The translations under genes and the position numbers were made by a program. Shown in pieces: positions 1-10,501 of a stretch of DNA of 64,000 nt. The first letter of the stretch is position 1, and each line of letters opens with the position of its first letter. Under the pieces are notes generated by a model. That model saw nothing but the letters and a program-made list of their open reading frames with translations. It searched no databases and was not told the DNA's origin. The stretch comes from an uncultured Candidatus Rokubacteria bacterium (GTDB taxonomy: Bacteria; Methylomirabilota; Methylomirabilia; Rokubacteriales; DASRDR01): the NCBI GenBank assembly GCA_963805625.1, contig CAWDVE010000014.1, positions 32,001-96,000 on the forward strand. Direction: 5' to 3'.

Positions 1-490
1 CAGTACGCTGCGTGCTTGGCTGCGGCGACGCTCCCAAGCTGTGAGGCAATGTGGATGATGGAGCCACCGCCAGACTTCGCCATCAGCGGCACGACGAACT
101 TGCTCATTAGAAACGCACCACCCACCATCACGCCATACACGATGTTCCACTGAGCGACGTCATACTCCAGGATGGTGCCTCCTGCCTCTCGGACGGCAGC
201 CCCGTTCACTAACACGTCGATCCGGCCAAGTGCGCGATACGCTGCATCCACCGCAGCCTTGGCCTGCGCCTCTATCGACACGTCACAGTGGATACCGACG
301 GCGGCGCCACCCGCATCCCTAAGGTAATCGCTCCCACCGTGTCTCGCGTGCCGGGCTCATCGAGATCCACACACGCGATGCCCGCGCCGGCGCGAGCCAG
401 CTCAAGTGCGATCGCGCGGCCGATGCCATTCGCGCTGCCCACAACGATCGCGGCCTTCCCGATGAGGCTGTACGGATCCTGTGCGGTCAC
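1..490 (-). pseudogene. SDR family oxidoreductase, frameshifted near 325-335, runs off the window edge
   Basis: AAIVVGSANGIGRAIA (Rossmann motif) in one frame; another frame continues GIHCDVS...GRIDVLVNGA...GGSIIHIAS...HAAY. Confidence 0.8.
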
Positions 491-589
491 GCGACTTCTC
501 GCATTCTTGCCTCGTGTCTCCCGACGATCGAACGGGATCTGAGCCAGTGTAAAGACAGTCATGCCACGGGCATGCCGTTTGTCGTCTCC

Positions 590-743
590 AGCGACGTGTG
601 AGGATGACCTCGAGGAGGTGCGCGCGCTCCTCGGCCATGCTCGGATCGACACGACTCAGATCTATACGCGCATCCGGCCGCCACAGTTCCAGCGCGCGGT
701 CCCGTTCTACGACCAGACTGCACGGCGGATGCTCATCAGCTGA
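590..743 (+). pseudogene. Tyrosine recombinase C-terminal fragment
   Basis: LEEVRALLGHARIDTTQIYT (box II with catalytic Tyr); no N-terminal part present. Confidence 0.8.
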
Positions 744-890
744 TGCACGGTTCAAGGCCCCGTTTGAGCCTCGATGTGCAACGGCTCGAACAGGATTTGA
801 ATGGGCGGAATCCCGTTCGATCGGAATCGGGTTTCAGGACGTTGGCCAAGGCCCTCAAATCGGGGAACGAAACATCCAGAGAACATCGAG

Positions 891-936
891 TGGTGGCTCC
901 AGCGGGATTCGAACCCGCGTTTTGGCCTTGAGAGGG
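891..936 (-). other. 3' half of tRNA-Glu(CTC), att-site remnant
   Basis: Reverse complement CCCTCTCAAGGCCAAAACGCGGGTTCGAATCCCGCTGGAGCCACCA has the anticodon loop, T-arm and CCA; no D-arm or 5' acceptor strand upstream. Confidence 0.85.
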
Positions 937-971
937 TTGTAACCAGGACTGTGGTGACGCGGACTTAGGGC

Positions 972-997
972 GCGGTTGCCACCGGCGGTTGCCACCG
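972..997. repeat. 13-bp perfect tandem repeat GCGGTTGCCACCG x2, candidate integrase arm sites
   Basis: Direct duplication about 35 bp from the tRNA-half junction. Confidence 0.55.
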
Positions 998-1244
998 CGC
1001 CTTCGAGTGCGCAACAGGCTAGCCTGGACACCGCCTCGGCAACAGCCCGAAGTCGTCCGCGGAGAGTGGCCATCCCAAGCCGAACGATGGCGGACGGCCC
1101 CTTGATCTGGTAGGAAGCGGCCGCCACGCCCTACGGGAAGTCGCGTGGGAAACGGGTGGCCGGTCGCTCCGGCGTCAGTCGCTCCCGCCAAGTCCGGAGC
1201 CCGTCGAATGGACGGAGGCGCTGCTGTGACCATCGGCCTTCCCC

Positions 1245-1410
1245 TCAGCGGGCGCCGACGGGCACACCTTTCGCGGCGGCCACGATGAGCGCCGCGACCG
1301 CACCTGGCTGCGACACGTAGATCGCGTGGCTCCCCCGCCCCTCGACTACGGTCGATCCGGCGCGCTTTGCCATAACGCGCTGGGCCGGCGGTGGGATCAT
1401 CCGGTCTTTG
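1245..1410 (-). pseudogene. Alpha/beta hydrolase C-terminal fragment
   Basis: DRMIPPPAQRVMAKRAG...GSHAIYVSQP; 5' part missing. Confidence 0.7.
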
Positions 1411-1419
1411 GACGGATGC

Positions 1420-2667
1420 CTATGGATTGACACGCTGGACGACGAACGCACCCCACGCACAAGCCACCATCAGCACCAGACCCGGCAGGATCTCGACGGC
1501 GTACTGGCGGTCACCGAGTGCCAAGGCGCCGACCATCTTGCCTACGGTGTTGCTGGTGAAGCCCGTCAGGACCCCGAGCGATGCGAGTTCCATGTTCGTC
1601 GAGCTGCCCGCCACGGACACAGCCGAAATAGCCGCGGCGTGCGCATCGGCGAATCCCGCGAAGGCTGAACCGAGCAGCAGCCCGCTGGAGCCGAGCCAGC
1701 GCGTCAGAAGCGTGGAGCCGACCAGGGCACAGCCCAGGATCGCCATGAACAGGAGTGCCGTCCTGGGGTCGAAGGGACGACCGCTGCCGACGTTGTCATC
1801 CTCGGCTTGCCGCACGCTGCGCAGCGTGAAGAACGCGCCATAGACGATCGCGGCGAGTCCCGCTGCCCCCAGCGGCAGCATCAGGCTGCGTAAGGCTGCC
1901 ACGTTGGTGAGACCGATGACGATGGCCAGTTGCAGTACCGTCGCCACCGACGACAGCACCGCCCCGGCCACGGCGCCTTGACGCAGGGTCGGATGTGCTT
2001 TGGCACGAGCCCCCATCGCGGCGATGGTTGCCGTACTCGATACGAATCCGGACATCAACCCGGCCAGCGGTAACCCGAAGCGCGCGCCGAGCGTTCTCAA
2101 GGCTACGTAGCCGAGCGCATTGATCGCCATGAGCAGCACGACCAGCAACCAGAGCTTGCGCACATTGACGACGCCCCAGGGGTCGATCGGCTGATCCGGA
2201 ACCAGAGGCAGAATCACGAGCGCCGCTGCGGCCAGCAGCAGGCCGTCATGGACTTCCGTGTCGGTCAGAACGCTGTGGATGAAAGTATGCAGCCGGGATC
2301 GCGCCGCCAGGATGATTGCCACGATCACCGCAATGCCCGCGGCCATGCCGGGTTGCCGCGTGGCCCAGGCACCGAGCAGAAAAGTGGTCATGAGCGCAAT
2401 CTCAGTGGTCATCCCTGGATCCACAGTCTGCGTACGCTGGTAGCCGACGATGACCAGCAGGCCGACGACGACACTTAAGGAGACCAGGGCCCACTCATCG
2501 ATCGTGAGCGCGATTGCGCCGGTGAGCGAGGTGAGCGCAAACGTGCGGACGCCGGCCACCTGACGGTCCGGCCCCTGGCCCTTGCTGCGCTCGCGTTCGG
2601 TGCCGATCAGCAGGCCGAGTCCGAGGGCCACAGCCAGTCCGATGAGGTGTTCCTCGAGCACATCCAT
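1420..2667 (-). CDS. MgtC/SapB family membrane protein with DUF4010-type domain
   Basis: GLLIGTERE, AGVRTF, GMTTE, GFVSSTA motifs; many TM helices. Confidence 0.88.
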   Translation of the reverse strand: MDVLEEHLIGLAVALGLGLLIGTERERSKGQGPDRQVAGVRTFALTSLTGAIALTIDEWALVSLSVVVGLLVIVGYQRTQTVDPGMTTEIALMTTFLLGAWATRQPGMAAGIAVIVAIILAARSRLHTFIHSVLTDTEVHDGLLLAAAALVILPLVPDQPIDPWGVVNVRKLWLLVVLLMAINALGYVALRTLGARFGLPLAGLMSGFVSSTATIAAMGARAKAHPTLRQGAVAGAVLSSVATVLQLAIVIGLTNVAALRSLMLPLGAAGLAAIVYGAFFTLRSVRQAEDDNVGSGRPFDPRTALLFMAILGCALVGSTLLTRWLGSSGLLLGSAFAGFADAHAAAISAVSVAGSSTNMELASLGVLTGFTSNTVGKMVGALALGDRQYAVEILPGLVLMVACAWGAFVVQRVNP

Positions 2668-3172
2668 GCAGGTATGTTACGTGAGCGGGCCGAGCCGTAG
2701 GGGCGGATCACCGCGCCGGCGGTGTCAACCCACGCGATGGCCGGCATTCCTTTGCAAACCGTGGGATTTCGGGAGATCAGGCAGGCTCCACCGTGACGCG
2801 CTGCGGCCCGAGGTGGCTTCGTGTCACCGCCCTGTGGCCCGCCGCACGTCGCCCTGGCGACCGGAACGGCCGAAGGCATCGTCCGCGCGCTCAAGCGAAA
2901 CGAGCTCTAACGGCCAGCCGAGCCACCGACGGCGCCCCCCGGCGACCGCGACGCCGCGTCCGCTCCGCCGGCACGGATGGAAGCCCGCAACCACTTGCCG
3001 GCCAACTGCGGGCTACTCAACGTCGGTTCGAGAGAGACGTCGCGTGCCGACATATGTCGTCCCGCAGCGTACGAGCATGGTGGCATGCCGAGCACTTCCT
3101 CTGCTCAATCCTTAGTCTTGGCCGGTCCGACTTGCCACCTTCCGTCACCCAACTCTCGATCGGTTCTCGGCC

Positions 3173-4185
3173 TCAGCTCCCACGCTTCATGGTCTTCTCC
3201 CAGAAGCGGATGGCGTCGGCCATCCATCCTTGGGCACTCGTGCCCGTGCCGAGCCCGAAGCCATGGCCGAGATGTCCGAACTTATGATACTCGACCAGCG
3301 TACCGGCCCTGCGAAGGGCCGCGATCCGCTGTTCCATGCTCGATGCCGGCGCAATGCCATCTTGCTCGCCGACGACCACAAAGGTCGGAGGCTCATCGGA
3401 CGAATAGTCTGAATGCGCGGTGTAGGCCATCACGACGGCGGACGGCTTTGGAAGGGAGTCACCTCCAAACCCTGCAACCCCGTCCGAACCGATTGCGGCC
3501 GCCATCCTCGCGCCCGCCCAACTCCCCCACACCGAATAATCCTGGGTGCTGACTCCGAGCGTGCGGGCACCCCTGAAGATGTAGGAGATGGCCGCCGCCA
3601 TGTCCTGGGTAGCCGCCGCACTGCCATGACCGGCCCGGTATTTCAGGACGAAGGCGTGTACCCCCGCCCGCTGATCTCCACGGCATAGGGAAAGCCTTCG
3701 TGGACGGAGCCCACATAGGAGAACCCGCCACCCGGGGCGACAATGGCAAACGGCGCTCCGACCGTACCGCGGAAGAAGAACAACCCGGTCTGTTCTTTCG
3801 ATGGCTCTGCCCGCTTCTGCGCCTCGGTGTAGACATCGAAGAATATGGTCTTGCCGCGGTTCACATCGTCAATCATGTGATTCATGGCGCCCACCACCAC
3901 ATCCGGACTCACATGGGTGTGATACGGCAGCAGCGAGCCGATGTCGCTCAACCGTGTGTCTTCAGCATAGGCGCGATCATCCCAGGGCAGTATCAACCGA
4001 CCATGACCGGCGAACGCCGGATGATGCAGGACGTCCCGGATACTGCTGGCCACGCTCAGGTGGCCGCTAGTCACCGGCTCACTCGCATTGCCACGGGAGA
4101 GGACAGTCTCGCTCTGTCCAGCTTCCGCAAGCGAAGCCATCCAGAGCACCGAGAACGCCAAGCCGGTGGTTCTGAGGACATCCAT
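3173..4185 (-). pseudogene. Secreted alpha/beta hydrolase (esterase-like), frameshifted near 3660
   Basis: Signal peptide and APGGGFSYV in ORF 3643..4242; WGSWAGA, GEQD and GHGFGLG in ORF 3173..3601. Confidence 0.8.
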
Positions 4186-4229
4186 TCCTCTGATTGTGGA
4201 TCCTTGCCACGGCCGCCGCCACCGCGATG

Positions 4230-4257
4230 CGGAACCTGTCAACGAGAGTGAGACAGT
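4230..4257 (-). mobile_element. Probable IS3-family terminal inverted repeat remnant
   Basis: CGGAACCTGTCAACGAGAGTGAGACAG resembles, from recall, the ends of the IS3 subgroup seen at 5996-6665; unverified. Confidence 0.4.
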
Positions 4258-4460
4258 GGGGCCATGAGTTTAGTGGAGGAGTGCCTTTTTGGTTGTCCGG
4301 GGTAGCGGTGGCCCACTTGATCTTGATGCTGCGGGAAGCCTGGCCCGTGGTTTGCTCCCGTGACTGCGGCCAGCCGATGACGTGATCTGCCCGGATCATT
4401 CATCCGCTCGCGCCCGCATCGAGGGCGGAATCGTCACGGCCGGTTTGGTCCTGGGACCTG

Positions 4461-4961
4461 CTAGAAGTGAAATCGCACGACCACCGGCGGCATCCCCTGT
4501 CGCGGAAAGACCAGAAACACATTACTATACTCGTCCCGGCCGATCGGAACGTCTGCTGTGTGTCCCAGCGCCCTGAGCAACACCGGGATGGTTTGCGAAT
4601 GGCTGACGATGAGCACACGATCCTGGGTGTGCTCGACGGCAAGCCGCCTCACCAGTGCCTCGATCTCGCGTCGCGGCACGATCCGGCTGTCGATCGCCAA
4701 CACCTTCGCCAGTGGTTGCGCGGTCTGAATCGTCCGCAGAGTCTCGCTCGTGTAAATGACGCGGATGCCCGCGTCTCTGAGGACGCTGGGTAGCCGTGCA
4801 GCGCGCTGATGGCCGATGTCCGTTAGCGGTGGATCCTCCCCATCGACCGCCTGCTCCGTATGCCGAATGATGAAGACCGCCTCTTGGGCCATGCTTGCGA
4901 GTGGGACCAGGAGGCAGAGGCAGGTGAAGAAGACGATGACAGCAAGTCTCCCGAAAGGCAT
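4461..4961 (-). CDS. Histidine phosphatase / phosphoglycerate mutase family protein, exported
   Basis: IIRHTE, LTDIGHQRA, SETLRTIQTA, LIVSHS motifs; signal peptide. Confidence 0.85.
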   Translation of the reverse strand: MPFGRLAVIVFFTCLCLLVPLASMAQEAVFIIRHTEQAVDGEDPPLTDIGHQRAARLPSVLRDAGIRVIYTSETLRTIQTAQPLAKVLAIDSRIVPRREIEALVRRLAVEHTQDRVLIVSHSQTIPVLLRALGHTADVPIGRDEYSNVFLVFPRQGMPPVVVRFHF

Positions 4962-4982
4962 GCGTGTCGCCCTCCCTTCCTC

Positions 4983-5966
4983 TCACCGGAGCACGTGGTC
5001 GGCCCGAGTGAGGATTGTCGGCGGCAGGATCAGCCCCAGGGCCTTCGCAGTCCTTGCATTCACCACTAGCTCGAACTCAGTCGGCTGCTCGACCGGCAGG
5101 TCGCTCGGCCGAGCTCCCCTTAAGATCTTGGTCACGTAGCCGGCAGCCTGTCGAAACACCTTGGCATGGCTCGGGCCGTATGCCATCAGGCCTCCCGCCT
5201 CGACGAATTCCCGGGATGCGTACATAGCCGGAAGGCGATGCTGGCCCGCCAGCATGACGATCAAACTGCGATGCCGAGCATTCACCGGTGTCTCAGGCGC
5301 ATACAACGCGTCAGTCCGCTCCCGGGAGAACCACGCGAAGACGTCCCGAAACTCCTCTGGTGTGGCCGCTTCCGGCGAGACCAGCAACGCCAACCCTAAC
5401 GCCCGCGCTGCGTCGCGCATCGGGGCCGGATCGACCCGGCTGGCCGAGTCCAGCACGACCCCCACGCGAGTGGCCGCCGGCACGGTCTCTTTCAGCAGCT
5501 GGAGGCGCTTCCCTTCGATCTCACGGCCGGCCGAATCGGACACGCCCGTCACATTGCCGCCGGGATGTGCCAGGCTCGCCACCAACCCGAATCCTACCGG
5601 ATCAGCGGCCCCGGCGAAGACGATTGGAATGGTACTCGTGGCGACCTTGGCGGCGCGTACGGCGGACGCGCCAGAGGCAATGATGACATCCACCTTCAAG
5701 CCCACAAGTTCCGTCGCCAGCTCGGGAAGCCGGTCGGCCCGGCCACCGGCGTATCGGCGCTCGATCGTGATGCTCTTTCCCTCGACCCACCCATCCTCGC
5801 GGAGCCCCTCCAAGAGGGCAGCCTCAATGCGCGGAGGCAACCCGTCGGCGAGTGAGAGGAAGCCGACCCGAGGGACTCTCCCCGCGAGCTGTGCCTCGGC
5901 GGCGAGCGCCGCCACGAGGAACGCGATCGTCAGGATGGCCATGGGAACGCGCCGTGAAACCGTCAT
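4983..5966 (-). CDS. ABC transporter substrate-binding protein (ABC_sub_bind type)
   Basis: [44 protein letters not shown]. Confidence 0.9.
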   Translation of the reverse strand: MTVSRRVPMAILTIAFLVAALAAEAQLAGRVPRVGFLSLADGLPPRIEAALLEGLREDGWVEGKSITIERRYAGGRADRLPELATELVGLKVDVIIASGASAVRAAKVATSTIPIVFAGAADPVGFGLVASLAHPGGNVTGVSDSAGREIEGKRLQLLKETVPAATRVGVVLDSASRVDPAPMRDAARALGLALLVSPEAATPEEFRDVFAWFSRERTDALYAPETPVNARHRSLIVMLAGQHRLPAMYASREFVEAGGLMAYGPSHAKVFRQAAGYVTKILRGARPSDLPVEQPTEFELVVNARTAKALGLILPPTILTRADHVLR

Positions 5967-5995
5967 GTCTCCTCTCCGGCTCGAGATCGTGCGCC

Positions 5996-6665
5996 TCAGC
6001 ATAGCTCCGGTCCTGACCACCCGTCAGGCGCGATTTCGGTGGAGCCGGTCGCGGGAGGATTGATCCAGACTTCCGTCGGACACGCCGGCGGCCGGGGGAG
6101 CCCGCGGGGGAAGCGCTCTGGGCGCGCGGCGTGAGCCGTGGCGAGTACGACCGCTCGCGCTGCCACGCGTTGGTCGGCCAGGCCGTGGTGGACGTCATGG
6201 GGCGTCAGGAGCCCAAGGCCGCTGTGCCGATGCTCCGTGTTGTACCAGGGGAAGAAGGCGTGGCAGTAGGCGCGGGCGTCCTGGATCGAGCCGAACCGCT
6301 TCGGGAAGGCGGGCCGATACTTGAGCGTCTTGAACTGCGCCTCCGAGTAGGGATTGTCATTGGAGACGTGGGGTCGAGCATGGGTCTTGGTGACACCCAG
6401 GTCAGCTAGGAGGAGCGCCACGGGCTTCGAGGTCATCGCGGGTCCGCGATCTGCGTGGATGGTCAGCTGATTGCGTTCGATCCCCTGCCGGACACACGTC
6501 TCGCGGATGAACCGCTCCGCCAGCGTGGCGCTCTCCCGATGCGCCACCATCCAGCCCACCACGTACCGACTGAAGACGTCGAGTAATGTGGAGCTCCACA
6601 TGAGTCGAGCATGACATACAGGTAGAAGTAGGTCCACTTGGCCGGGCCGAGGAGCTTGGTGATGT
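5996..6665 (-). mobile_element. IS3-family transposase C-terminal fragment, with a 26-bp insertion; 5' end cut by the IS at 6666
   Basis: ITKLLGP..WTYFYLYVMLD/VFSRYVVGW, IHADRG, SNDNPYSEAQFKTLK, WYNTEHRHSGL. Confidence 0.88.
6578..6609. repeat. Transposon footprint: 20-bp near-perfect palindrome between 6-bp direct repeats
   Basis: GTCGAG-TAATGTGGAGCTCCACATGA-GTCGAG; removing 26 bp restores the IS3 frame (MLD-VFSRY). Confidence 0.8.
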
Positions 6666-8007
6666 TGTCCTTCGCCAAAACCCCGTCCAGCGGCCAGGCG
6701 GTTGATCTTTCAGCTCGGATCCGGAGACAATGGCCGTCCCATGATCACCACGCTGCTCCACCTGCTTCGCCTCTTCCCGTTCCTCTGCGGCGGCCACCGC
6801 CAGCTCGCTCTCGAGAACCGTGCCTTGCGCCAGCAGCTCGTCGTGTACAAGAGAACGGCGAACCGGCCTCAGCTGCGCCCCCGCGATCGGCTCTTCTGGG
6901 TCGGCTTGTCCAGGGTGTGGACGGGATAGAGAACGGCCCTCGTGATCGTGGCGCCCGACACCGTCCGGCGCTGGCAGCGGCGCCGCTTCCGCCTGCACTG
7001 GTCCAAGCTCTCCGGTCAGCCCACTGGGGGCCGCCCGCCCATCAGCCCCGAGATCAGAGCCCTTGTCACACGAATGGCTGCGGCAAATCCCCTGTGGGGC
7101 GCCCCCAGAATCCATGGCGAACTCCTGAAGCTCGGTATCGACGTGGCCGAGCGCACCGTCTCCCGGCTGATCCCCAAGCGGCGCTCACCGCCCTCTCAGA
7201 CCTGGCGCGCGTTCTTGACCAACCATGTCGCGGACCTCGGTGCCATCGACTTCTTTACCGTACCCACCGCGCACTTGCGCGTGTTCTTCGTCCTCATCGT
7301 GCTCGCCCACCATCGCCGCCGTGTCCTCCACTTCAACGTCACCGAGCATCCCCCCGCCACATGGACCGCCCAGCAGATGGTGGACGCCTTTCCGGAAGAC
7401 TCCGCGCCGTCCTATCTCCTCCGCGACCGCGACAGCGTCTACGGTCACCTCTTTCAGCACCGACTGAGGGGCATGCGCATCCGTGAAGTGCTGACGGCCC
7501 CCCACAGCCCATGGCAGAACCCGGTCGTGGAACGCCTCATCGGCTCGATCCGGCGCGAGTGTCTGGATCATGTCCTCGTCCTGGGCGAGAGCCACCTGCG
7601 CCGCATCTTGACCCGCTACCTCGCGTACTCTCACCGCGCACGCACTCACCTCGCACTCGACAAGGATGCGCCCGACGGGAGGCCCAGCGAACCGCCGGCA
7701 CTGGGCACGATCATGGCGATTCCCGACGTCGGTGGGCTGCATCACCGATACGTCCGCCGGGCGGCATAATCCAGCATCGCTCGGCCGGCCTACCGCTCCC
7801 CAGCGCCACGGCCCTCACGACACGATCCTTCCTTCTGGGGCCAATCCGCCCACGCTGATCGACCGTTTGGGATGGCGGGACCGATGGCCTCAATCTGCCG
7901 ACTGCCCTGCGTCGAACGTCCCACCCACCATTCTTCGAGCGTGTTGGGCCTCTCCCAAGAGCACGGATCGTCGCCAAGCGAATCGGACGCGGTTTTGGCG
8001 AAGGACA
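6666..8007 (+). mobile_element. IS element with integrase-core (rve) transposase and 23-bp TIRs
   Basis: Left end TGTCCTTCGCCAAAACCCCGTCC; right end reverse complement TGTCCTTCGCCAAAACCGCGTCC (22/23 match); no target duplication. Confidence 0.88.
6741..7769 (+). pseudogene. Integrase-core transposase with an internal TAG at 6927-6929
   Basis: ORFs 6702..6929 and 6942..7769 are in the same frame; WGAPRIHGEL, IDFF, LRDRD, SPWQNPVVER. Confidence 0.85.
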
Positions 8008-8438
8008 GGCGTGTGGTGAATCCTCAGCAGTCGCTGGTGGCCGGGGTAGAGCGGGCGTGTCCAGGTCGCCTCGGACTCGAACGTCACGGGCAATCGGCCC
8101 TCTTCGCGCACCACGAACGTGTAGCCCAACAGGAACGCAGGCACCGGGCCGTGCGTCGTAAGGCGGATCTCGAAGCTGTACGTGTCCGCATCCAGGAAGA
8201 AACTCTCATCGGCTAGGAAGTTCGCTTCTACCCATGGCCGATGCGTGGCGTCGAACATCCGCTGCGTGGTCGAGGCCTGCCGCTTAGCCTCACGGGCCAG
8301 GCGCCACGTGAGGGCGGCGTAGACACCGGCTACGACGACGCCCGCGACAGTCGCCAAGCCGGTCAGTCCGCTCAGCGCCGCCTGTTCCTTGCTGAGCCAG
8401 CCCCAAAGGTTGTTCCACCACGAGATCAAACTGTCCAC
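8008..8438 (-). pseudogene. Hypothetical single-TM membrane protein, 3' end truncated by the IS
   Basis: N-terminal hydrophobic helix then soluble domain; the frame runs into the IS TIR at 8007; divergent from the recombinase. Confidence 0.6.
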
Positions 8439-8491
8439 GGCGGCGAGGGTAGCACGCCGGGTCTACAGACCAGTCACGTGAAAGGAGATGC

Positions 8492-10159
8492 TTGATGATC
8501 GCAGCCATCTACGCGCGCAAGAGCAACGAGCAAGGCGTCCCCGATGAGGCGAAGTCCGTAACCCGCCAGGTCGAGCACGCGACGGCGTATACCCAGCGGA
8601 AGGGCTGGACCGTTCACCCGTCTCACGTCTACGTCGACGACGCGATCAGCGGGGCGGAGTTCGTCAACAGACCGGGCTTGGCCAGGCTCCTGACCGCCCT
8701 GTCGTCGCGCCCGTTCCAGGTCGTCGTCATGGCCGAACCCTCACGCCTCGGCCGTGAGCAGATCGAGACCGCGTACACCCTCAAGCGCATCACGGACGCC
8801 GACGTGCGGGTGTTCTACTACCTGAATGACCACGAAGCCCTCATGGACACGGCGCTGGCGAAGGTGATGGCGTCGCTGACCGGGTTCGCCGCAGAGCAGG
8901 AGCGCGAGCAGGCCCGGGTCCGGACGCATGACGCGATGGCCCGCAAGGCGAAGGCCGGCCACGTCACGGGCGGGCTGACCTACGGCTACACCAACGTGCG
9001 CCGGGACGGCCACGTCGCGCGCCAGATCAACGAGCGCGAGGCGGCGGTCGTCAAGCGCATCTTCGCCGACTACGTGCAGGGGATCGGTCCCCGTGCCCTC
9101 GCCGTCGCCCTCGCGGCGGAGGGTGCGATCCCACCCAAGCCACGGCAGCGAGGGGCGGTCCCCGGATGGTCGCGGGCCGCGATCCTGGACATCCTCAAGC
9201 GCGACCTGTACCGGGGCGAGATCGTCTGGAACCGCCTCAAGAAGACGGACCGTGGTGGCCGGACGAAGGTCCGGGTTACCCGGGCCACGACGGACCTGAT
9301 CCGCGTCCAGGACGAATCCCTCCGCATCATCGACGACGTGACGTGGGAGGCGGCGCAGGCACGCCGGCAGAAGATGGCCGGCACTCGACCGGCAGGATCA
9401 TGGACCCGGAGCACGACCCCCTCCACGCCCGCGCTGCTGGCGGGCATCGCGCGCTGCGCGGGCTGCGGCGCGCCCCTGACCCGGCGTGGCCGACCGAACG
9501 GGTCAGGCAAGAATCGGACCCGCATCATGATGTACGTGTGCAGCAGTCGGAACCGGCCCGGGGTCTGCGCCAACGCGGTCGCGCTCAAGGAGTCTATCCT
9601 CGACGACGCCGTCCTCCACGCCCTGGCGGACGCCCTGTCCGCCGACGCGATCGAGGCGGCGGTCAAGCGGGCGATGGCCGAGGCGAAGGCGGAGCTGTCC
9701 GGGAGTGCGGATCGCCGGGTCGAACTCGACCGGGACATCCGGACGGTGGAGACCCGGCTCGCGCGGCTGATGGAAGCCCTCGCGGCGGGCACGATGCCGG
9801 TCGGCGTCATCACCCCGAAGGTGACCGAGGAGGAGGCACGACGGGTCAGCCTGACCCGCGAGCGCGATGCCCTGGCCACGGCCGGCGCCGTGGTCGACTA
9901 CACCAACACGAAGGTCCTAGCCGCGATCAAGGCAGCGGCCGGCGACGTCCGGGCTGCCCTGCTGGAACATCGCACGGAGGCGAAGGACGTCTTGTCCGCG
10001 TTCCTCGACACGATCGTGTTCACCCCGTTCGGCGCAGGCCGTGCGCGGGGCTACGAGTTCAAGGGGACCGGCGACTACGGGTCCCTGATCGGCCAGGCCG
10101 TGAAACCTCTCCTGCGGGTGGTGTCCCCGACGGGATTCGAACCCGTGTTGCCAGATTGA
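8492..10159 (+). CDS. Large serine recombinase (integrase)
   Basis: YARKS catalytic Ser, DDAISG, RPGL, SRLGR, TYGY, recombinase domain, CxxC...C...C zinc ribbon, coiled coil; AAAGGAG RBS. Confidence 0.95.
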   Translation: MMIAAIYARKSNEQGVPDEAKSVTRQVEHATAYTQRKGWTVHPSHVYVDDAISGAEFVNRPGLARLLTALSSRPFQVVVMAEPSRLGREQIETAYTLKRITDADVRVFYYLNDHEALMDTALAKVMASLTGFAAEQEREQARVRTHDAMARKAKAGHVTGGLTYGYTNVRRDGHVARQINEREAAVVKRIFADYVQGIGPRALAVALAAEGAIPPKPRQRGAVPGWSRAAILDILKRDLYRGEIVWNRLKKTDRGGRTKVRVTRATTDLIRVQDESLRIIDDVTWEAAQARRQKMAGTRPAGSWTRSTTPSTPALLAGIARCAGCGAPLTRRGRPNGSGKNRTRIMMYVCSSRNRPGVCANAVALKESILDDAVLHALADALSADAIEAAVKRAMAEAKAELSGSADRRVELDRDIRTVETRLARLMEALAAGTMPVGVITPKVTEEEARRVSLTRERDALATAGAVVDYTNTKVLAAIKAAAGDVRAALLEHRTEAKDVLSAFLDTIVFTPFGAGRARGYEFKGTGDYGSLIGQAVKPLLRVVSPTGFEPVLPD

Positions 10160-10196
10160 AAATCTGGAGTCCTAGGCCTGCCTAGACGACGGGGAC
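10119..10196 (-). tRNA. tRNA-Glu (TTC)
   Basis: GTCCCCG/CGGGGAC acceptor stem, CCAGA-TTTTCAA-TCTGG anticodon arm, GGTTCGAATCC T-arm, encoded CCA. Confidence 0.95.
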
Positions 10197-10221
10197 GCGT
10201 CCTCTAAATGCCCGCCACGCA

Positions 10222-10250
10222 ACGCTATCAAGACCATCAGTCCAATGCAA
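10222..10250 (-). promoter_or_regulatory. Putative sigma70 promoter of tRNA-Glu
   Basis: TTGCAT-N17-TAGCGT on the minus strand about 25 bp upstream of the tRNA. Confidence 0.55.
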
Positions 10251-10383
10251 GCAGCGATCAAGTCTTCGTGTCGCCAGCCGAAAATCTGGAATCAGTGACG
10301 GCCCGGGAGATGGTCTGGATGTGCAAGTCATCGGGAGATTGGAACTTTCATTCGCATCAATCGAACCTCGGCTCAAGGGTCAG

Positions 10384-10405
10384 GAGTGCCACCATGAGTG
10401 CCACC
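10384..10405. repeat. GAGTGCCACC-AT-GAGTGCCACC, 12-bp period direct repeat
   Basis: Near-identical copy at 39300-39320. Confidence 0.65.
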
Positions 10406-10501
10406 GGTACCGGCGGTCGAAGAGCCACGACGGCCAGGCGTACCGCGCGCGATCCCCACTTCAATTGGTTGAGAGGTTCGATCCAGCGAGACTAGACGCA
10501 G

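Follow-up and report, generated by a model that had tools for sequence, protein, structure and literature searches.

The question raised by this locus is why an intact gene for a large serine recombinase (LSR) ends inside the tRNA gene on which it converges, and what this means for the C-terminus of the enzyme. The reading preferred here, to which a probability of roughly 60% is given, is that the att site lies within the 3' end of the LSR gene, that integration would swap the tail of the protein and that the swap would act as a degron switch. The window, the whole stretch of 64,000 nt that was analysed, corresponds to C14:32001-96000, on contig C14 of genome G000. The features concerned are as follows.

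1..8438, no strand: in-window island cargo, from profile searches of scanned ORFs
8481..8488, plus strand: ribosome-binding site of the LSR, from sequence, with 7 nt between the end of AGGAG and ATG 8495
8495..10159, plus strand: intact LSR in its integrated form, 554 aa (555 from TTG 8492)
10119..10139, no strand: 21-bp block at the tRNA 3' end, with an exact same-orientation copy (likely attR) at C14:19581-19601
10119..10196, minus strand: tRNA-Glu(TTC), the probable integration target and likely attL (ARAGORN; Rfam 58.5 bits)
10133..10134, no strand: putative crossover dinucleotide (GG), from fragment lengths in kin
10139..10159, plus strand: six tRNA-derived codons and the stop, integrated state only; the circle would carry a 15-residue tail ending IA instead

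The LSR ORF at 8492-10159 on the plus strand encodes 555 aa when started at TTG 8492. ATG 8495 is the better match to the AGGAG site and gives a product of 554 aa. The Pfam domains Resolvase, Recombinase and Zn_ribbon_recom each scored over their cut-offs, and Ser10, the SRLGR motif and Cys 321, 324, 349 and 358 were all found. The protein has the parts of the LSR class, namely an N-terminal catalytic domain with a Ser near residue 10 and SRLGR-type arginines, a recombinase domain, a zinc ribbon and a coiled coil, together with a final beta-hairpin at 504-526. These results bear out the first-pass annotation of a 555-aa LSR with intact catalytic and zinc-ribbon motifs. Domain order and fold are the same as in Bxb1, phiC31, the 9y66/9dxh integrase and CcrB. 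Comparison to solved LSRs gave a Foldseek E of 2e-21, and the VIA alignment gave a Z of 18.6 over 482 aligned residues with an rmsd of 34 owing to domain motion. The closest NCBIfam model was CcrB of SCCmec (100 bits, with the cut-off at 900). No close relative was found in cultured phages, where the top-ranked proteins had 26-32% identity and 312/312 were below 60%. Titled relatives were mostly records of Rokubacteria/Methylomirabilota, Nitrospirota and Acidobacteriota. The first-pass annotation had also called this the only intact recombinase. That stands for contig C14 as searched (one family-profile hit and no match to the tyrosine integrase domain PF00589, with the Pfam scan of window ORFs covering the first 11 kb) and fails genome-wide, as a second full-length family member (L002) with ~40% identity lies at C10:1953714-1975293 in the host genome. 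L002 terminates in a tRNA-Glu(CTC) fragment and not in a whole tRNA, and its candidate attR, 21.5 kb off, is of the CTC type with the tail ...GILP*.

The tRNA-Glu(TTC) at 10119-10196 is the sole Glu(TTC) gene among the 63 tRNA calls of the genome. It overlaps the LSR by 41 bp (10119-10159), and the LSR stop, TGA at 10157-10159, is the TCA of the anticodon loop read on the opposite strand. The convergent layout, the length of the overlap and the antisense origin of the stop had all been claimed earlier and were reproduced. The overlap is a trait of the family. A convergent tRNA or tmRNA was present no more than 300 nt from the LSR stop in 48 of 80 related genome loci. In 47 of these 48 the LSR ends inside the RNA gene or past it and not before it, with a few of the 47 overlapping ORFs frameshifted upstream; the lone exception is a truncated LSR that stops short. 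The overlap is therefore not due to chance. Targets of the 47 were Glu(TTC) (26), Ala (8), tmRNA (4), Glu(CTC) (3), Arg (3), Ser (2) and Lys (1), and the layout occurs in three named phyla with eight types of target.

The overlaps ranged from 17 to 247 nt and were divided 23/20/4 among the three frames. The tails of 120 homologs enter a tRNA antisense, also in all three frames. In the model of the integrated LSR pLDDT was <50 at residues 541-547 and 551-554. Because all three frames are used and the tail is disordered in the model, the tRNA-written tail is regarded as filler. Its residues had earlier been treated as a meaningful tail, and this has been corrected. Closely spaced repeats of copies resembling the tRNA-Glu 3' end were seen in metagenome loci L163, L185, L193, L198, L205, L210 and L236.

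The copy of the 21-bp block at C14:19581-19601 lies outside the window, to the left and 12.4 kb from its start, and bounds an island of ~22.5 kb. It is probably the attR of this LSR itself. Three further near-copies of the same arm lie on C10, so it is position and frame that favour pairing with C14:19581. The boundary of the repeat falls inside the tRNA and not outside it. Together with the family overlap, the repeat supports the original proposal of a tRNA-targeting LSR with att inside its own 3' end, and the in-frame tail beyond the far repeat supports the further proposal that the C-terminus would change with integration state. An att site inside the LSR gene, with a tail swap, is considered very probable. 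Five more TTC-type fragments elsewhere in the genome have short frames like this one, with IA, VA or AA at the end. An empty site, with the tRNA joined to its presumed native flank, was found in 0/183 genomes of the order. The full tRNA-Glu(TTC) genes of nine relatives each have a different sequence straight after CCA, so the site appears to be a hotspot. No excision junction was found among the matches listed in contigs of six DNA runs, whose coverage was partial. One contig of run X1, which is possibly the source sample, crosses attR.

A tRNA-Glu(CTC) fragment at window 891-936 was tried as attR and rejected for its wrong acceptor stem. Such CTC 3' fragments start at the anticodon loop, have a conserved arm beyond and occur in many scattered copies, at window 891-936 (minus strand), in the C14:19690 region and at C10:1942363, C10:1975261, C11:22927, C16:579966, C17:161695 and C19:5282. 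They look like att scars of a tyrosine integrase. A CTC fragment lies ~110 bp from the TTC-type scar both at C14:19581 and at C10:1942234.

The island cargo consists overall of metabolic genes and IS remnants. The genes identified were IS remnants, an ABC substrate-binding protein, a His-phosphatase, hydrolase pieces and MgtC/DUF4010. No directionality factor (RDF) or phage genes were found among the island ORFs scanned in window 1..8438, and no phage or RDF families in 22 further island ORFs (18 short ones, chosen by codon bias). The matches in those 22 were a weak integrase remnant (window 561-740, E 5e-4) and a FabG-like hit. A 182-aa membrane-anchored ORF at window 7890-8438 (minus strand) is divergent from the LSR. 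It had no Pfam, NCBIfam or PHROG family and its ESM Atlas matches, at 0.94-0.95, were clusters of proteins without a name.

The crossover was placed at GG 10133-10134 because of the fragment lengths in kin. This dinucleotide is nt 15-16 from the tRNA 3' end, at the first pairs of the T-stem 3' strand. In a count that required 16 nt of tRNA end, kin fragments retained 16 nt (7 sites), 17 nt (9) or 18-21 nt (7). No breaks at nt 15 or 16 were found in 15 genomes of the genus. Elsewhere 69 sites with such breaks were found in 251 genomes, and a tail was present in 0 of the 30 examined. The present repeat extends to the T-loop centre; the kin fragments of down to 16 nt indicate the 3' edge of the loop. 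A crossover at the T-loop centre was dropped, as the breaks in kin come after nt 16 or 17. The crossover is taken to lie at nt 15-16 from the tRNA end, and the element would restore the tRNA 3' end. In L064 and L087 the tRNA-like end is only 12 nt long, and the tail looks helical and has AA or VA at its end, which suggests that other subclades cut elsewhere.

When the LSR frame was joined to the arm beyond the far repeat, a 564-aa protein ending ...GLIRIA* resulted, in which the six tRNA-derived residues are replaced by fifteen. A survey of att sites in 140 metagenome and viral loci, among the matches listed, gave 153 sites, of which 116 were distinct and which formed 99 clusters. Among the matches listed, a frame of 14-38 codons ending AA* was present in 28/99 tRNA-end sites, under a rule for length and ending that was chosen after the examples in this genome and with kin sites that are not independent. 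Shuffles (200) gave 1.2±1.1 such frames with a maximum of 5. The opposite flank had AA* frames in 4/91 sites (matches listed). With [VILT]A endings included, 35 of the sites listed were counted against 3.8±1.9 in shuffles. Homologs reaching the C-terminus numbered 249, and a motif filter split them into 150 with tRNA-antisense tails, two of which end AA (P0167 misfiled), and 99 with other tails, 30 of which end AA. The host baseline for an AA ending was 28/1736 long ORFs. The AA ending was absent from 71/99 sites and 69/99 non-tRNA tails, many of which are tRNA variants, repeats, frameshifts or decay.

A same-orientation fragment was found for eight LSRs, and the own-frame tail ends in A in six of them. 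The endings are ...VVAA in L047 and L050, ...GIAA in L057, ...PRTA in L045, ...LRAA in L096 (the nearest) and ...IRIA in the present LSR. The failing pairs end ...VEP (G013) and ...ILP (G000 C10). Three different frames are represented among the frame-matched pairs. No fragment was found for 10/17 LSRs within the DNA examined. On a FastTree tree of 107 proteins (31 AA-tail and 76 tRNA-tail, with two misfiled rows and most close homologs excluded) the tail types were interleaved, with 22 changes where shuffling gave 27 on average. This is the pattern expected of a state and not of a subfamily. The sister of the present LSR on the tree ends ...LTAA. The tails differ greatly in sequence and length and are most constant in their last two residues. 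On the sequences compared, conservation lies in the tail across att and not in the tRNA-written one. A second class of att arms was seen in kin genomes (L307, L313, L321, L334-L337), with conserved hydrophobic tails of ~30-40 residues, and is probably from another LSR subfamily on the same tRNA.

The host tmRNA tag is ADNELALAA, ending LAA, and clpX is also present in the genome. A C-terminal AA is recognised by ClpX. A tag within an att-split gene that integration could remove is found in sequence at the level of the family, and the present copy ends IA. The repressor and integrase of phage BPs have ssrA-like tags, according to the accessible text of a review (PMC9262239). On balance, the 15-residue circle-side tail would be mainly an ssrA-like degron. 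The island (22.5 kb) was likely integrated by the LSR at the tRNA-Glu 3' end, with the gene overlap as its likely left border. Excision would swap the six tRNA-derived last residues for the 15-residue tail. An incoming or excised circle would give a tagged, short-lived integrase, and host ClpXP would thereby limit (re)integration. Integration would strip the tag and give an untagged enzyme, which would excise only with a directionality factor. The alignment of solved LSRs, over their length, takes up residues 1-538 of the model, which lie ahead of att, so the integrated form would keep the whole canonical fold.

An unlikely but substantial alternative is that the circle-side tail is a structural or activating beta-strand, with full activity from the circle only and the enzyme turned down by integration. 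In the model of a natural AA-tail homolog the tail forms an ordered strand (558-564, pLDDT about 67-73) and a short helix, and the tRNA tail is disordered. The pTM values of the two tail forms (0.70 vs 0.50) come from models built on different alignments and are an uncontrolled comparison. The tails repeatedly show alternating hydrophobics and often an F-x-G pattern, and the idea was raised for DsiB and is similar to Mx8. However, the canonical LSR fold is already complete before att, and it is the final two residues that stay constant in tails of highly variable sequence and length. Degron and structural roles of the tail may both hold.

It is less probable still that the tail swap is real yet incidental, with the AA tag common in LSRs, the att site in the gene end by coincidence and the integrated gene silent or its tail state irrelevant. 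The distant viral LSRs L137, L140, L141, L144 and L146, close to which no tRNA was found, also end AA, so the tag may be general among LSRs. No selection was seen on the integrated tail with its three frames, a candidate directionality factor exists separately in the family, and no promoter consensus was found at 8200-10500. The layout has nevertheless been kept over the three phyla and eight targets, though a stop before att is easily gained, and just 1/48 convergent loci stops short, in a truncated gene. Main control of the integrated LSR gene by convergent tRNA transcription, through antisense RNA or collision, had been raised in the first-pass annotation and is very improbable: the two genes do meet head-on with an overlap, and between LSR and tRNA-Glu, as in the rest of 8200-10500, a search for intrinsic terminators found none, but such control leaves the conserved AA tails unexplained. 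Mere loss of a stop codon beside a tRNA used by a tyrosine integrase is hardly credible, even with tyrosine integrases as the classic tRNA users (PMC4383910, accessible text) and the weak integrase remnant in the window, as it is largely refuted by the family overlap (47/48), the AA-frame enrichment and the frame-matched tails at far borders, and PF00589 is without a match on C14.

For the degron switch, which remains the preferred reading, a candidate directionality factor was found in the family. A one-helix ORF lies directly upstream of the LSR in 41/125 family loci, of which 22 built the ORF profile and a few are duplicates. It is coupled to the LSR start, for example at L055:5655-5852. 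No NCBIfam family was found for the L108 copy and no PHROG family for the L055 copy. The predicted complex of the L055 factor with its own LSR scored 0.74, a mark attained by 116/157 solved pairs and 2/215 mismatched pairs, and the best control scored 0.02. Its runs share at least 64% of contacts and the partner pLDDT was at least 51. In the predicted complex the factor contacts the coiled-coil base of the LSR, which is described as a hotspot for directionality-factor binding (10.1101/2024.08.21.608926, accessible part). The upstream one-helix protein is a predicted candidate for a new RDF family, and the pass of the L055 complex may reflect likeness to solved integrase-RDF structures. No significant copy of the factor was found in G000 (best E 0.21), and the gap between the LSR and the divergent gene is 56 bp only, so the island probably cannot excise alone and is probably locked in place. 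The initial statement that no RDF was evident holds for the present island, but the family has this upstream candidate. A ribbon-helix-helix-like ORF of 65-73 aa was present near the LSR in 12/81 loci, mostly of Acidobacteriota (L052, L068, L073, L098 and L111 among others).

The locus was compared to known systems. DsiB of the Dehalococcoides ssrA islands (McMurdie et al. 2011, PMC3146451, text available in part) is an LSR of ~540 aa that, as here, is convergent on an essential t-type RNA gene. Its gene always overlaps attL with the stop past the site, the layout also found here, and it has a ~20-bp direct repeat near the T-loop. The islands are tandem and the C-terminus of the enzyme is variable, similar to the present family. 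DsiB targets tmRNA, whereas the present LSR targets tRNA-Glu and its family Glu, Ala, Arg, Ser, Lys and tmRNA (4/47). The six-gene DsiB module (DsiA, ParB-like, Mom-like) was not found among the island ORFs scanned, and no second serine recombinase was found on C14. The likeness described here is one of layout, and no conserved circle-side tail or AA ending is described in the available part of that report. Its authors suggested that function may depend on the circle and left open the meaning of the split end.

In phage BPs integration removes a tag from a split repressor, whereas here it would be removed from the serine integrase itself (PMC9262239, partial text). The BPs integrase is a tyrosine enzyme with a constant tag and no RDF evident in that text, whereas the present family has a candidate RDF. 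The split gene of BPs is a repressor beside a tyrosine integrase; the split gene here is a serine integrase. Mx8 Int is a tyrosine recombinase, and its listing in Islander agrees. In Mx8 attP lies within int, the 3' end of which is replaced on integration with a change in activity, as may be the case here; the accessible text does not mention a degron, unlike the present proposal (PMC6070905, PMC4383910). The solved LSR chains compared had no counterpart of the circle-side tail. By their defining features the LSR appears to fall outside both the DsiB module and the BPs system, and would work like a blend of both. Serine integrases were without known tRNA-gene targets in the 2015 Islander work (PMC4383910, accessible text), and the accessible portions of two later papers describe no such tRNA-targeting clade. 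A literature search, in which subscription papers were sparsely covered, found no description of serine integrases that target tRNAs and have a degron encoded by att. Such islands could already be among those of the TIGER tables.

The present locus contributes an enzyme that is intact, the two borders of its island, pairs matched in frame, an estimate of the crossover point and a candidate for the factor. At the DNA level it is established that the gene overlaps the tRNA, that the 21-bp block is repeated, that an in-frame tail follows the repeat and that AA tails are enriched in the family; a self-tail switch built into the integrase is likely to be family-wide. Database entries mostly carry the tRNA filler tail (150/249), so those who mine for tools should try both tails. 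As the sequence gives attB, attP, both protein forms and a candidate for the directionality factor, a test of the switch is direct. The family extends the targets of serine integrases to tRNAs on a broad scale, and it gives a testable answer to the question left by DsiB on the role of an att-split C-terminus. There is an even chance that a large uncharacterised clade of serine integrases hits tRNA 3' ends and strips or restores its own degron by recombination, with the one-helix factor as a second layer. If so, the circle would give an unstable enzyme and the integrated island a stable one, in a two-layer switch. In tandem arrays the older integrase would inherit the tail of its newer neighbour.
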